Assembly (NCBI GenBank): GCA_964106915.2
Contig: OZ066914.1
Strand: one strand, 5' to 3'
Length of the DNA: 64,000 nucleotides
From: Podarcis gaigeae
Taxonomy: Eukaryota
The notes beneath the pieces are model-generated. The model did not search any database. It was not told where the DNA came from and saw nothing but the letters and a program-made list of their open reading frames with translations. Made by a program: the position numbers and the translations under genes. Shown piece after piece: positions 19,240 through 30,557 of this stretch; position 1 is the first letter of the stretch, and the number at the start of each line of letters is the position of its first letter.

Positions 19240-19781
19240 GCTCCCGGTGGAGTACAGGGTCAGATTTAAGGTGCTGCTTTTGACCTTTAAAGCCCTTCAC
19301 GGCCTAGGATCCTCGTACCTATGGGACCGCCTCTCCTGGTATGCCCCACGGAGAGCCTCAAGGTCCATAAATAATAACACCCTAGTTGTCCCAGGCCCTA
19401 AAGAAGTTAGATTGGCTTCAACCAGAGCCAGGGCCTTTTCAACTCTGGCTCCGGCTTGGTGGAACGCTCTGCCTCATGAGACCAGGGCCCTGCAGGATCT
19501 GATTTCTTTCCGCAGGGCCTGTAAGACAGAGTTGTTCCGCCTGGCCTTTGGCTTGGAGCCAATTTGATTCCCTCCCTCTCTCTCTCTTTCTCCCCCCCCT
19601 CTTTCTTTCTTTTCCTTCTCCTCCTGCGATGAGGCTACATTTTAATATTTTAATGTTCCATTATTTTAATGTTGTATTTTATTCTTGTTTTTAAGCTGTA
19701 ATCATTCATCTTGTTTTTATTATTGCTTGTAAGCCGCTCTGAGCCCGGCCTTGGCTGGGGAGGGCGGGGTATAAATAAAAA

Positions 19782-22157: not shown

Positions 22158-23968
22158 CTGCAATTTGAACCAGTAACCATTAGCTCCCTTAACAAAGAAA
22201 ACAAAGTAATTATTGACACTTCAAGGTGAGACATCTGTTTCTATGCACTGCTCCACTCCCAACCCACTGCCTCAATTGTGCTGAACAGAGATCTTTTGCT
22301 GAGCACAGAGGCTTGAGAAGTCCCACTAGTTATCAAAGCAGTGCTTCTGAGAATTGAAACATAGCTGGTTTTAGCTAGGGGACTCTGCTTGAATTTAAAT
22401 ATCCTAAAAGTTTAGACTTTGGGGAGGAATATTTCAGTATTTTCTGTAAGGCTCACTTTGGAAACACTGCTTCCTTAATCTTTTTGATGCAAATTGGATT
22501 TCTAATGAAGTGCTTTACTACATAACTCAGAATGAGGTTACAGAAATGTGTAGAAACAGCAAATTTCAACACTCTTATCATTTGTAATCTTTGCTGTTTT
22601 CTTTAGAAAGCAAGAATTGCAAACTAAAACAGCTTATCCACACAGTCACAATACCAGGGACCTGTGTTTCTCCCTTATTTACAACAAGCAGAGTTACCTT
22701 GAGCAGTTTAATTCACCTAAGAAAATTCTTAAGGAAACAGACATGGATATAGAATGTCATAGGGAAATGAAGTTCTGTGTACACAATTGTGTGTGAGGAA
22801 ACAGAGATAGTAAGGAGCCTGACTGATTCTAGCTTTATAGACAGGAGTTGCCCACATATCTGAAAGGACCAGGAACATAAGTAAGTAAATAGGCTCCTCA
22901 GAGTGTATGAACATGCAAATAACCGTAACTTAAAAGGACGAGGCATTACACTTACACTGTAAAACAAGAAAACCCTTAATAAAATATATTTAAAAAAATA
23001 AAAAAATAAAAATAAAGTCTGAATTGAAAGAAAAAAGAAAAAAGAAAAAAAAGGAGGAACCATAATCTGTGCACTGCACCTAAAGTCAGGCATCTGGATT
23101 CTGCATCAAGAGCTGAAGCTTAAAGGCTGAATTACAATAATTCTTAGTGCCCCCACAAACTACAACTCTCAAAGATTATTTGTGGGTGCCCATGATTGTT
23201 AAAATGGTATAAAACTAACACAAGCTTCTAGTGCAGACATACCCTCAGATATCTGATCAAATGTACTCTGGCATGATAAACATTCTGATTCACTATGTGC
23301 ACTTCTCAAAGAAATTGCCTCCTCTAGCACTGCAATAAAATAGGAAAGTACTGTTTGCAAGGGTGGGGCTGGCCAGTGCTGTTGAGCAAAATAAAGGTCA
23401 CCGGCTAGAGGAGTGGACATTGGCCTGAGTTCCACTTCTGCCTGGCTGTGGGCTGGTTGAATTGTCCTGGGCAAGAATATTCTTCCACACTTGGTTCCCA
23501 TTCTCTGTACTTGGGATGCTGAAAGCCAGCCTCTCAGGGGATTGTACCCTGAAAGCACTGCAGAAATATTCCTTATTCACAGCAAGAGAGTGTATACATT
23601 CTGAACAAGTTGCCTCCCACAGTATCATTTGAAGGGAAAAAAGGAGCCCCTAACTTTCAAGTTAAAATATTACTATCAGTCTGAGTTTGTTCAAAAACAG
23701 ATGACAATTTAGGTCTGTGAAAATCAAATCATGTACAATAAACTCTTTTTGTGAAAGGAAGGACAAAACACAGGGTGCTTCAACTACAGTTGCTTTGGTG
23801 TGCAGAACTTGGCAGCGGAGTTCTTTGCTTAAGGAACATGCATGTTTCTATTACCAAGTATGTTAAGTCATTTTTTTAAAGAATAAAAGCCCTTGCTGTT
23901 TCTGATGCTGCTTAAATCACCCATGATACCCCCTTCTGACTAAGATTCTAGGAATTCAGGTACAGTAC

Positions 23969-24270
23969 CTGCAAAGGAATCTATTGCATCGCCATCTAGG
24001 GAAGCATCTCTTTTCTGTGTCAAAGTCTCTGCTTCCACAGTGGTGGTCTTAGCTAGCTGCTCCTCTACTGTTTTCCTCTCTGCGACAAATACCCCATCTG
24101 ATATATTTGCTGGTGCATTCTTTTCCAGGCAAGCAGGACTGGCCTCTGCTAACCAGTACAGCAGTTCACTGCCAGCAGCAATGGGACAGCATACTTCGAT
24201 GTGGAGCTCCCCATTGATCCATACTAATGCCACATTTGCCTCATCTTTATCCCGGCTTTGCTTCACCAAG
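23969..24270 (-). CDS. ZNF408: ZNF408 coding exon 4 (C-terminal part of degenerate PR/SET domain)
   Basis: LVKQSRDKDEANVALVWINGELHIEVCCPIAAGSELLYW is PR-domain-like (I..G.ELL.W); ttttacag acceptor, G|gtactg donor; 302 nt. Confidence 0.88.
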
Positions 24271-24530
24271 CTGTAAAACACATTATGCCAAGCATCAGTA
24301 TCCAATCTGGGCTTTGTCCGAAGCACAGGGGCAGGACACGGCTCTAGAGAGGCAGTGCAGGTGGGTGTTATGTGAGACTTAAGGGGGCCTCAGTCAGGTC
24401 TATCAAATAATATGTCTATAGATCCTGATGGTTTTTTTGAGCAGACTCCTAGGAAAAGTCAATTCAGAATACTTTTTCTGAAGTTACCTTTTGTTGAGAC
24501 AGATTTTTGAGTCAATCTAACTCAGTGTAT

Positions 24531-24715
24531 ACAAAAAAATTCCTTCCAGTAGCACCTTAAAGACCAACTAAGTTAGTTCTTGGTATGAGCTTTCGTGTGC
24601 ATGCACACTTCTTCAGATACAGTGTATCTAACTTAGTTGGTCTTTAAGGTGCTACTGGAAGAAATTTTTTTTGTTTTGACTATGGCAGACCAACACGGCT
24701 ACCTATCTGTAACTG
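24531..24715. mobile_element. Penelope-like element remnant with fold-back (inverted) structure
   Basis: ~46-bp inverted arms 24531-24576 / 24628-24674; 13-bp direct repeat taactcagtgtat at 24518-24530 and 24716-24728; tail (cagaccaacacggctacc) resembles squamate Penelope pLTR ends as recalled. Confidence 0.8.
24583..24620 (-). ncRNA. Minimal type-I hammerhead ribozyme motif
   Basis: Minus strand reads GUAU-CUGAAGA-A-GUGUG(CAUG)CACAC-GAAA-GCUC^AUAC: core boxes, helix II hairpin, helix I GUAU/AUAC, palindromic AGCU helix III remnant. Confidence 0.75.
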
Positions 24716-27385
24716 TAACTCAGTGTATGTTCACATACACTGACTGGTAGTAGTTCTCCAGAGTTTTAGGCAGGGGTCCACCTTGGAGGTACAGTGATTG
24801 AACCTTTAAACTTTCCTGAAAGCAGTTTATGAAGCCATACAGGTAACAAAACACCTAGTTCAAACAAAATGGATTCTTGATAGTGGCCATGCAAGAGTAC
24901 TGATTAAGGGTACAAAAGACTTGCGGCTGCTTCAACGTTTGTTATATTTAAAGTCACATATAGGATGTTTCATCAGCCCAAAATTGCTGGCTCATGACTG
25001 ATTGGTTAAATTGCCCTCTCCAAAGGCTAAATGAATATATTTAGCTTTACCATCCTATTTTTTAGTAAGATGAATAATTATTTAAGAGATCTTTGTTAAA
25101 CTGAATAGAAATTTATTGCTAGCTGCAAAATATTGAGTTGTATTCAATTAAGTCCAGGCAGAATAGAGCCAATGAAATTAATGAGCCTAAGTGAGTCAAG
25201 TCCATTAATGTAAACAGGTCTACTCAAAATAGGACTAGCACCGAATATCACTTACTGATTTTATTTATGTTTTTAAGGGTGGAATTCATCATAGAGATAT
25301 TACAATCCTATCAGCAAAGGCATTTCAGTTGCTGGACAGAACAATCTCCCCTCTCCTTCCCCTGAACACTCTTCTGGGGATTCTCCTAACCTGTTCAGAG
25401 AGAATTTGGCATGAGAGAAGGGAGGAAGTTCCAGTGCACTGGTTCTTATTAGAACACCTGCTTACTTGAATATGTCCCACTTTTTCCTTCTCAATTTTTA
25501 TGAATTTAAGTTTTTTTCTATGTAAATGGAGTTCATTTTTTAAAAAGCTGTAATCCACTTAGTTTCCTTTCCAGATGAAAACATGGAATGCATGTATCAT
25601 AATTATTGATAAGAGCCAACTTAGATGGATTAACACAGAGGTTTTTTGTCAATATAGCCTAAGGGACCAATAAGCCTGACATTTCAGCTCGCCCGAGAAT
25701 TCTCTAAGGAAAACTTGACCATCCTTCAGGGAGGGTTCATGTTTCTGATTCTGCTCCAAGAAAACACAAAGCATATACTTTTTTATTTTGCATAAATGTA
25801 TTACATTTGTAATATTTCTTTGCCAGTATTTTAAAGGAAGTTGAACAGGATGGGAAGAAAAGTGAGATTCTGGGTATGGGCAGGGAGTACCAGTGAGGAA
25901 GAGAAAAAAGGAAACCACAAAAGGAACTGAAACTTACAGTGCATTCTATATATCAGGAGTAGCCAACATTGTACTCGGTAGTTGCTGCTGGACTCTAATG
26001 CCTACCATCCCTGATCTGGGGGGAGTTGCAGTCCAATTTTGGGAGGGATTGTTCATTTGCTTTTAGATCAGGGGTGGGGAACCTCCAGGCTGAAGGCCAG
26101 ATTTTGACTGCCAAGGGTTCCAGTTTGGCCCAGAAGGCAGTTCCCACCAAATTACACCCACCTGCCCCATACATGACATCATATATGGGGCAGGTAGAGA
26201 CACAGACGCCAATGCACATTGGGAGCCTGACTGTGCATTGGTTAGGGAAAGCAGGCTTCAGCTCTACTGCCCAGATAGGTGAGATCCAATGCTTCCCCTA
26301 GAGTTCCCTGCAAGGAACTTGTTCATGCAGCTGATGCCTGCAAAAAGTAGGATTCGGCTCTCCTGCCCATCAGTTGACGAGTGGAAGAATAGAAGCCTGC
26401 TTGTTGCAGGAATCAACTGTCTGCTGCATTGCTGTGGGGGGCTTATAGAGCTCCTTGCAAGCCCCGCACAGCAATCCAATTTCTGCTTTCCTGCCTGTCA
26501 GAACCACATTACAGCTTCTGTGACACAAGATAACCCAAGGAGAAAGGACAGTGACTCTGCTGAGTTTCTTCCTCATTCTGTTGGTTGACCTGCATGCCTA
26601 CCCTGTAGATGATTTCCTTCAGCATTAGGAAAAATTTGCAAGATGAGAAGAAAGACAGCAGAGGAGCTGCTCAGCTCCTGGGGTGACAGAGGAAAAGAAC
26701 AGAGCTAGTTGCTATTAAACAGGCCAGTTTCTACATCTGCAGCAAAAACGTTTATTGATCACATATTTATCACCCATTCTTCAGTGGCTAACATACCAAA
26801 ACCGATATATCCTCTCACAATATCACCAGTTACTTTTGGATTTACAGAGGCATACAGAGTCATCAGAAATAAATTCCAGGATCATATCTGATTTTGGCTC
26901 ACTTGACTGCAAGTTGGTCCCAGCCATGGAGCAAAATTTATCATCTCATTGCTCTGTTATATATCTGGATTGATTTTTGAGATGTGTGAGAATAGAGTCC
27001 TTCACATCATCATATGCTGAAAATTCATCTGGCTGCTTGAAGAAACCATCAAGTGATCACTGCACTACGGTTTGTGATAACAAACACTGAGCTTGTGGTG
27101 CAGCCACAAGCTTTTCAACAGAAATGGCCCCATGCTGGTTGCCGGAAAAACGTTAAGTGCTGTTGGTGAGATAAATACTAAAGTCTGATTCTCACAACTT
27201 ACATAATTTTCAGCCTGACTCAAGCAGGATTGATAGTAAAACATCTATGTGGTTTACAAACAAGTTAAAAAACAGTTTGCATGAATTGACCCTAACTTGT
27301 TCATTATGGTTTGAATGATCGTAGCCAACAAACCACTTCATTAGATGTATGAAGTTTGCTGAGAAAGTTGTGAAGCAGAACGCAC

Positions 27386-27447
27386 CTTTTCCAGCTTGCT
27401 ATCCTGTTGCAAGCAGAAGCCTCTTTCCAGCAGGCTGGTGGAAGTTC
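27386..27447 (-). CDS. ZNF408: ZNF408 coding exon 3 (ELPPACWKEASACNRIASWKS)
   Basis: 62 nt, phase 0 to phase 2, strong acceptor ctctcgtgttccag, donor AG|gtgcgt; W/AC/W-x-S spacing resembles the human exon as recalled; best-supported candidate bridging exons 2 and 4. Confidence 0.82.
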
Positions 27448-28607: not shown

Positions 28608-28931
28608 TTCAGTTCTGAATCACTTATCTTGCTCTTTTAACTTGAACTCTTTACGACTGAACCTGTGCTTGCTGCTAGCCTGAGTAAAGATCGCTTCCTT
28701 ACTCTGAAGTAAGCACTGTGTGATTTCAACCATGGAAATAAGGGGAAAGAGTTAATCATCTTCCCTAAGCACTGCTTCACCATCTCATTATCCTCCCTCT
28801 GCAGTATGTTTTTTAAGATATTAAAAAAATAATCCTAAAATACAGTGATTGCTATTATATCACATACAGTTCAGCCCTCAGATCTACAGTAACAATTACT
28901 GGCCACTACTGTAATTCAGTACAGTATGGGT

Positions 28932-29290
28932 GGGACGCAGGTGGCGCTGTGGGTAAAAGCCTCAGCGCCTAGGACTTGCTGATCGAAAGGTTGGCGGTTC
29001 GAATCCCTGCGGCGGAGTGCGCTCCCGCTACTCGGTCCCAGCGCCTGCCAACCTAGCAGTTCGAAAGCACCCCGGGTGCAAGTAGATAAATAGGGACCGC
29101 TTACCAGCGGGAAGGTAAACGGCATTTCCGTGTGCGGCTCTGGCTCGCCAGAGCAGCAATGTCACGCTGGCCACGTGACCCGGAAGTGTCTCCGGACAGC
29201 GCTGGCCCCTGGCCTCTTAAGTGAGATGGGCGCACAACCCCAGAGTCTGTCAAGACTGGCCCGTACGGGCAGGGGTACCTTTACCTTTAC
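28932..29290 (+). mobile_element. Full-length Sauria-type SINE
   Basis: tRNA-like head with box A (GTGGCGCTGTGG) and box B (GGTTCGAATCC), (ACCTTT)n tail, 12-bp TSD tactgtaattca at 28907-28918 and 29288-29299; CpGs retained. Confidence 0.9.
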
Positions 29291-30557
29291 TGTAATTCAA
29301 CACATGTTCAACTGAATTGTCAGAAATGGGATGAGCTTTGATATTATTTATAAAATCACTTTGGGGAAATATAGCCCCCCATTTTCATTCAGTTGTAGTA
29401 AATACTTGCCTCGCTAGATGGCCTGATACTACAGATGACCAACTCTCCCTACATAGTTGCGGTCACTCTGCAGTGACCTTCTAAGCAGCTGGGAGTAGTG
29501 TGCAGTAGTGGCTAGACTATGTAGGAGACTAAAACTGCAGATAATAATAGAGGAGTAAGTGGCCTTGAGCAACAATAACTTTCAGTGCTCCTTCACAGAA
29601 TTGCTGAATGGATAAAAATGTGTCTGACTGTAAGTTGTCTTGAGTACTTACTAGTAAAGTGGAATATAAACTAAGCAGACATCATGCCACATTCAGTCAG
29701 TTTCAACCCATGCAATGAGCAGGGGTACGCCAAGTGAGGGCTGAGTTGTGTGCATGATGGAGCAGATACACTTCATGAGGAAAGGAGAGACAAACTTCAC
29801 CTCTGAAGCACATTCTCAATGGGACAACTAAGTAACATGAAGTGACTACAGTTCAGACTTCTATAGACAGAAAGAGGAAACAGTGGCACCAGAGCTAGAT
29901 GTGTGTGCAATTACCTTCTAACATGAAAAACCTTGCTAATTTGGACAAAAGGACCATCTAGCTCAGCATTCTAACAAGTCTGATATGAGGGCAATAGCCC
30001 ACTCTGTCATGGTATTCAGTGGCATTCAGCTGCTGAAACACTGTGGCTAATAACCATCGGTATATATTCCCTCTGAACTTTTTAAATCATCTTTTAATGT
30101 CATCTAAGCTAGTGGTCCCCATATAGTGTGACAATGAATTCTGCATATTAATTATGAGCTGTGTAAGTACAGTACTTCCTTTTCTATCCTGTTCGTTAGC
30201 TTACTGGGAAGCTCTAGCATTATGAGAGAGGGGGAAATGCCTTCTATCCCCTTTCTCCCACCCATGTGCAGGTGTCAAGGATACCAGAAACCAATCGAAA
30301 CTATTTTTTGGCCACCAAAAAGTGACTAGATAACACTAAGACCAGGACAGCTGCACTTTGAAGAGAGAAATTGGGCAAGCAAGCTGCTTTCTTAACTGGT
30401 GGATATAACAAGCTGCGCCTGTCAGAATCCCTTCTCCCGGCAACCGAGAAGGGTCGGGCGTCTAGATGTGGTCGGCCGGGCAGAGGGTCGCGAGAGGGCG
30501 CCCCCACCGACCTGAGGGCTCTGACTGGAGGCCCAAACTTGCCCGCCCATCGCTCAC

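Follow-up and report, generated by a model that had tools for sequence, protein, structure and literature searches.

A 185-bp head-to-head insertion of an abundant Penelope-like element in a ZNF408 intron, with a hammerhead that is likely an inactive passenger

The feature found in the window, which is the whole stretch of 64,000 nucleotides that was analysed, is with a probability of about 0.85 a minimal insertion of 185 bp from an abundant Penelope-like element (PLE), whose hammerhead is likely an inactive passenger and which likely plays no role specific to ZNF408. The insertion extends from 24531 to 24715 and is flanked on each side by a 13-bp target-site duplication, the left one (24518..24530, plus strand) being identical to the right one (24716..24728, plus strand). 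The original prediction had set its limits at 24531..24674, which misses the tail up to 24715 and both 13-bp duplications. Two short pLTR copies are arranged head to head and only one of them bears a tail. In the numbering used here, position 0 is the first G of helix I (24620 in the window) and the predicted cut lies before +34. The copy without tail (24531..24621, minus strand) extends between parent position -1 and the T-tract, the hammerhead included, and displays 96.8% identity over 94 nt with the pLTR of the intact element L265. The tail-bearing copy (24628..24715, plus strand) corresponds to parent positions +44 to about +131, and its tail of about 40 nt stops just ahead of the parent's ATG. 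Comparison with L265 reveals a junction piece (24620..24629, plus strand, parent positions -4 to +5) with a 2-nt overlap on the short copy; it is connected to the tail copy by a skip of 40 nt, with a 2-nt microhomology at this place. The skip deletes the second hammerhead, and this is why one hammerhead is found in the loop rather than a longer stem. The first 8 nt of the junction piece are also present in the target duplication, and it is possible that the piece originates from the target sequence. The sharing of 8 nt between the insertion target and the start region of the element may reflect chance or a target preference. The host flank beside the right duplication (24720-24743) is itself a 10-bp inverted repeat.

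An inverted repeat search places the first arm of the hairpin (24533..24576) within the short copy and the second (24628..24671) within the tail-bearing copy; both arms are of 44 nt, are 98% complementary and enclose a 51-nt loop. The folded stem comprises about 46 bp (z = -12.75; 0 of 200 shuffles equally stable), which confirms that the motif lies in the loop of a hairpin of about 46 bp. The region 24518-24728 displays the characters of an EN+ PLE insertion, namely an inverted 5'-truncated copy, a one-sided tail and a target-site duplication. A MITE of a DNA transposon was rejected: the repeats consist of pLTR sequence, and both the length of the duplication and the asymmetry of the ends speak against it. 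An Rfam match to mir-559 (52.9 bits, for a gathering score of 95) was also rejected, as it reflects merely the long stem.

Longer copies of the family extend upstream into a GIY-YIG frame. The intact parent L265 (G000:C17:77540000-77546000) has the complete organisation pLTR-ORF-pLTR of an EN+ Penelope-like element, with two pLTRs in direct orientation 3,010 nt apart and a single ORF of 897 aa that matches RVT_1 (E 9e-12) and, at its C-terminus, GIY-YIG (E 8e-6). The order within the pLTR is TATA-like box, Inr-like TCAGT 30 nt below, hammerhead, T-tract, tail of about 40 nt and ATG, the TATA-like and Inr-like labels being presumed from matches to the consensus sequences. The endonuclease is preceded by a C-X4-C-X2-C linker, which agrees with the CX2-5CxxC linker upstream of GIY-YIG that marks Neptune and Nematis elements in the available text of PMC8557442; the parent may thus be called a Neptune-like PLE, the suffix reflecting the linker rather than a placement in an RT tree. 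Several other copies contain frames of 759-966 aa, which indicates that the family is young. Uninterrupted full-length ORFs are present in L263, L264 and L265, the last with both pLTRs and a candidate for biochemistry. According to the reading of translations, L264 sits inside another LINE-type ORF and L263 adjoins a 7-transmembrane receptor-like exon. Intact ORFs allow the model of PLE insertion to be tested in vitro.

The original prediction had proposed a genome-wide copy count, and the exact 38-mer of the hammerhead was recovered in 9,021 genomic copies (4,512 forward and 4,509 reverse; reversed control, 0). An anchor of 28 nt taken in the arm has 15,583 exact genomic copies, and a DNA search with the whole unit gave 1,432 candidates, the 40 scored ones all spanning the entire unit. 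Thirty fetched copies show the same build in unrelated flanks. Among 36 inverted pairs sampled, 32 combine a tail copy and a short copy, four are composed of two short copies and none of two tail copies; a crude search detected a direct repeat of 11-15 nt in the flanks of 24 of these pairs. Because 32 of the 36 pairs have the one-tail, one-short build, the stem and the loop of the hairpin are considered as a by-product of the insertion process. Some units (L131, L158, L170, L047 and others) are inserted in older copies of the family, in other repeats or in (TAT)n runs. The loci L031, L040 and L073 belong to an older subfamily with a TATATAA box at the same place and an identical hammerhead.

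The positions where the copies end were determined on 91 arms (70 loci) drawn from among the first 100 matches to the arm anchor (first 5.2 Mb of contig C1). The 5' ends of 32 arms fall at -4 to +2, and 14 lie beyond -15. Only one arm ends at the cut (+34) and four end within +31 to +37. The main cluster is located 30 nt below the TATA-like box, and an extra G is frequent there; the best Inr-like A (-3) is a minor end, with 1-2 of the 91 arms. A second cluster, which contains 14 of the 91 arms, spans +9 to +15, over the helix II palindrome, and points to stops caused by structure. Genome-wide, a base that differs from the parent precedes position 0 in 2,819 copies, position -2 in 2,180, position -11 in 58 and the cut in 164, and 2,845 copies read through to -14. 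Inspection of 30 cut-site cases showed that 12 are point changes within a whole motif. A pile-up of ends at the ribozyme cut was rejected on both counts (1/91 arms; 164 versus 2,819 copies genome-wide). Loose contig ends were also observed in four DNA runs at 24533, 24620-24621 and 24714-24715.

Directly before position 0, 73 of the first 100 copies have a G; this proportion falls to 27 of 100 at the cut and to 15 of 58 at -11 (hand counts of the listings; Fisher p versus position 0 of about 1e-10 and 1e-8, respectively). An added G is the signature of a capped RNA copied to its end. At -2, where 2,180 copies end, a T is added in 79 of the first 100. A simple cap model leaves this T unexplained; untemplated addition of A by the RT, or trouble at the modified first nucleotide, can be offered as guesses. 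In tandem units, the ORF start is connected to a position between -5 and +1 in 22 of 30 junctions, a set that includes two pairs of non-independent rows, and 6 of the 11 junctions at position 0 carry a G that is supplied by neither side. A variant master copy was rejected as the main cause of the extra G, the upstream contexts being heterogeneous. The inverted arm was rejected in the same manner, as the G is also present in tandems with a known partner; in some junctions the partner does supply it.

The tandem units form head-to-tail mini-arrays composed of the pLTR leader and 25-72 nt of the ORF start. L221 (minus strand) has three units with a spacing of 183 nt, and the spacing is 190 nt in L227 (plus), 162 nt in L234 (minus) and 180 nt in L214 (plus). 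In L221, L227 and L234 the same junction recurs, which would be expected if jumps on one RNA were repeated or if the template was circular. With two or more hammerheads in cis, these three loci and L214 are more promising than the window copy as regards dimer cleavage.

Because copies end far more often at -4 to +2 than at the cut, the element likely copies an uncleaved, capped RNA to its 5' end; another reason for the scarcity of ends at the cut could be that RNA, once cleaved, simply does not serve as template. The evidence consists of genomic DNA, from which we infer the start site, the cap, the inactivity, the editing and the splicing. The ends speak for an uncleaved template with a cap and for two priming events, rather than for a template defined by cleavage and, if this is true, the hammerhead is not what sets the template's 5' end in vivo. 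According to the mechanism that we propose, the element protein would nick both target strands, about 12-13 nt apart, and two cDNAs would be primed internally on the leader of the transcript, one at the tail and the other at the T-tract. Each cDNA would pass the uncleaved hammerhead and, after about 95-135 nt, reach the 5' end of the RNA at its cap; the ends of the two cDNAs would be joined via microhomology. In the window copy, one cDNA would have skipped, or later lost, the 40 nt that contain the second hammerhead, and the surviving hammerhead would have been left in the loop. In vitro, the protein of the Poseidon element of Anolis nicks and extends both strands, and reverse transcription has two internal start sites that bracket the tail (PMC11167929).

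We lean, with odds a little better than even, towards a joint reading where the stubs are the genomic record of the Penelope cycle. Transcription would start 0-3 nt before helix I under the TATA box of the pLTR. The two internal RT starts, followed by run-off at the cap, would yield one strong-stop-like cDNA of about 95-135 nt per target strand. The joining of the two cDNAs would produce the hairpin, and a jump from the cap to a different site of the RNA would produce the tandems and, by extension, the pLTR-ORF-pLTR organisation. The young and near-identical copies provide counts on an open question, namely how PLEs are inserted and what purpose the hammerhead has.

With the same identity for the insertion, the hairpin could have another origin, which we consider rather improbable: one cDNA or an antisense transcript would fold back and prime itself. 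Some junctions are perfect palindromes centred on helix II or on AGCU (for example L138 and L076), and a model of this kind has been proposed for the inverted junctions of rotifer Penelope in the available text of PMC3846280. However, many junctions are non-palindromic, a fold-back should repeat the variants of one arm, and it does not yield by itself one end at the tail and the other at the T-tract, as observed in 32 of the 36 pairs. The extra G at the presumed start also suits a capped sense template, and the activity of the Anolis protein on both strands in vitro (PMC11167929) argues for two cDNAs.

It is also doubtful that the common 5' end corresponds to a splice acceptor, or to a stop caused by structure at the helix I base, in place of a transcription start. 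A pyrimidine tract and CAG directly precede position -1, the extra T at -2 lacks an explanation, and the intron of Drosophila Penelope has its end at the 5' extremity of helix I (PMC4209133, available text). A common upstream exon is nevertheless absent from the junctions examined, where the partners are heterogeneous. The stem ought to halt the enzyme at its entry, on the 3' side, and not past it. The TATA-like box 30 nt above the Inr-like A and the enrichment in untemplated G also speak against this reading.

The minimal type-I hammerhead motif occupies 24583..24620 on the minus strand, which reads from 24620 to 24583 exactly as the original prediction gave it. It comprises the 5' strand of helix I (24620-24617), the CUGAAGA box (24616-24610), an extra A (24609), helix II with the loop CAUG (24608-24604/24599-24595), the GAAA box (24594-24591), the AGCU palindrome (24591-24588) and C17 (24587), the cut being predicted between 24587 and 24586. 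A relaxed hammerhead motif matches once in the window for 0 matches expected (100 shuffles), and the window motif is identical to that of both pLTRs of L265. The CUGANGA and GAAA boxes, helix II, the short helix I, the extra base after A9, the palindromic stub of helix III and the location in a pLTR are those of the minimal hammerheads of PLEs, and the assignment to a Penelope-type hammerhead without helix III as a monomer is supported. The motif is not a canonical three-helix hammerhead, helix III being impossible in the monomer and Rfam giving no match. The Rfam covariance models, which had been proposed as a check, detected no hammerhead at E<=10 in the window; they also missed the identical motif in the pLTR of the intact parent, so this negative result shows a limit of the models. 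A relaxed scan of the fetched loci indicated a single family, where 171 of 200 motifs are identical and the others have single changes, none of them compensatory.

In the predicted folding of the pre-mRNA, the pairs of helix I have probabilities of 0.82-0.95 and those of helix II of 0.98-0.99, and AGCU is unable to close on itself in the monomer. A rival mini-hairpin (24629-24615) that would block helix I was rejected, its probability being only about 0.03. With an energy model that excludes tertiary contacts and proteins, the double-hammerhead duplex formed by stem swap between two molecules has -153.3 kcal/mol, for -155.8 kcal/mol in two monomers and -172.8 kcal/mol in a dimer misfolded through the helix II palindrome; the share of the active fold in the dimer is about 1e-16. 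Cleavage of the window hairpin in the pre-mRNA should thus be negligible because helix III cannot form, and the hammerhead is likely latent, its dimers being predicted to misfold. The cleavage as a dimer that had been suggested is predicted to be unfavourable by the energy model and finds no counterpart in an excess of genomic ends at the cut. In the available text of PMC4209133, minimal hammerhead monomers are inactive and dimers weakly active in assays. The hammerhead of the Anolis element cleaved only when the element protein was added, its insertion did not require cleavage, and ends at the cut are absent from RNA-seq (PMC11167929).

It seems very unlikely that intronic hammerheads are latent and switchable by the element protein or by a partner copy, which would lead to the cutting of ZNF408 and other pre-mRNAs. 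The motif has the same core as the intact element, folding predicts helices I and II to be already in place, intact ORFs are present in the genome, and cleavage is assisted by protein in the Anolis element (PMC11167929). The copy on the pre-mRNA strand is however devoid of the tail and ORF start that the Anolis protein needs for its insertion activity, which makes help from the element protein less probable here by analogy. The minute share of the active fold in the modelled dimer and the lack of an excess of cut ends among the genomic copies also argue for a passenger.

The host gene was recognised from a zinc-finger exon that is 93% identical to lacertid ZNF408. Coding exons mapped by tblastn on the minus strand lie upstream (27379..27447) and downstream (23946..24272) of the insertion, the latter corresponding to a part of the PR domain with a PRDM2_PR match below the curated cut-off. 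As originally predicted, the motif is intronic, in an intron of about 3.1 kb, sense to ZNF408 and about 260 nt before the acceptor; we take this acceptor to be that of exon 4, and the intron to be intron 3, from the structure of the human gene. This distance exceeds the usual distance of a branch point. Unique flanking contigs enter the element from both sides in the four DNA runs, which come from four organisms of one study, and none spans the whole insertion. Being common to all four runs, the insertion predates the split of these organisms, and its presence in the four is compatible with neutrality without proving it. Among the runs that hold the sequence, none is recorded as RNA, which says nothing about expression. 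The same intron contains two small inverted repeats (26148-26198 and 26425-26478, with arms of 17 and 20 nt), and other common reptile repeats, judged from translations, are found near the gene at about 19241-19567 and 28916-29315.

Near-perfect stems of 44-46 bp are typical substrates of ADAR, and the stubs place a large number of such RNA hairpins in the introns of this lizard. The stem may plausibly be edited, which would be incidental. The significance particular to ZNF408 that had been attached to the motif is not supported, since it is one of 9,021 exact copies evenly distributed on both strands. Domestication of the hairpin as a regulator of ZNF408, acting as ADAR substrate or splicing modulator, has in our opinion hardly any likelihood: the stem is of the type that ADAR edits and the insertion occurs in four related organisms, but the family is young with such hairpins in thousands, this copy, in common with others, is about 97% similar to the parent, the acceptor lies past the usual branch-point distance and incidental editing would not equal a function. 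For ZNF408, the insertion matters little, as one repeat stub among thousands. In Xenopus, the available text of bioRxiv 10.64898/2026.07.22.740005 describes related retrozyme copies as somewhat depleted from introns, which by analogy hints at a mild cost and not at a use.

Published work already describes this class of motif, the inverted arrangement, the tail, and TATA and Inr in pLTRs. Neither a description of this lizard family, nor counts of an end hotspot versus the cut, nor a cap-type extra G at the 5' ends of PLEs was found in the open literature, taken without supplements and, for the family, without Repbase and most subscription papers. The counts of the end hotspot versus the cut site and the extra G are the new elements brought by this genome. 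In the available texts, EN+ PLEs (PMC8557442; Adineta Pen2a_Av, PMC3846280) have an inverted 5'-truncated pLTR and a one-sided tail of 30-40 nt; they share with the lizard family the head-to-head pLTRs, the target-site duplication, a TATA box and an Inr-like motif in the pLTR, and a parent with RT and C-terminal GIY-YIG. Unlike them, the window insertion has no remnant of the ORF, and neither copy extends above the presumed start, so that a hairpin of 185 bp is left. Drosophila Penelope has instead a TATA-less internal promoter (PMC2377424, available text).

The motif resembles the minimal hammerheads of metazoan PLEs, as presented in the available text of PMC4209133, by its type I, its short helix I, the extra nucleotide after A9, the G-C first pair of helix II, the palindromic 15.2-16.2 and the predominance of solo copies; the same text mentions pairs on opposite strands 100-700 bp apart. 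It differs from them by a helix II of 5 bp that is a perfect palindrome. Non-LTR retrozymes (bioRxiv 10.64898/2026.07.22.740005, available text) are also short non-coding units derived from PLEs with a type-I hammerhead, and tandem arrays of 160-190 nt of the lizard family occur elsewhere in the genome. In contrast, the window contains an inverted pair with a single hammerhead, and not consecutive head-to-tail units of which two or more have a hammerhead; tandems are found at other loci. In Poseidon_Ac (PAc) of Anolis (PMC11167929), the two internal start sites that bracket the tail match the two 3' ends observed here, and cleavage is apparently dispensable for insertion, as is proposed for the lizard element. 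PAc, a member of the Penelope/Poseidon clade, has an ORF whose start lies within the hammerhead, whereas the ATG of the lizard element follows the tail and a Cys-rich linker precedes its endonuclease.
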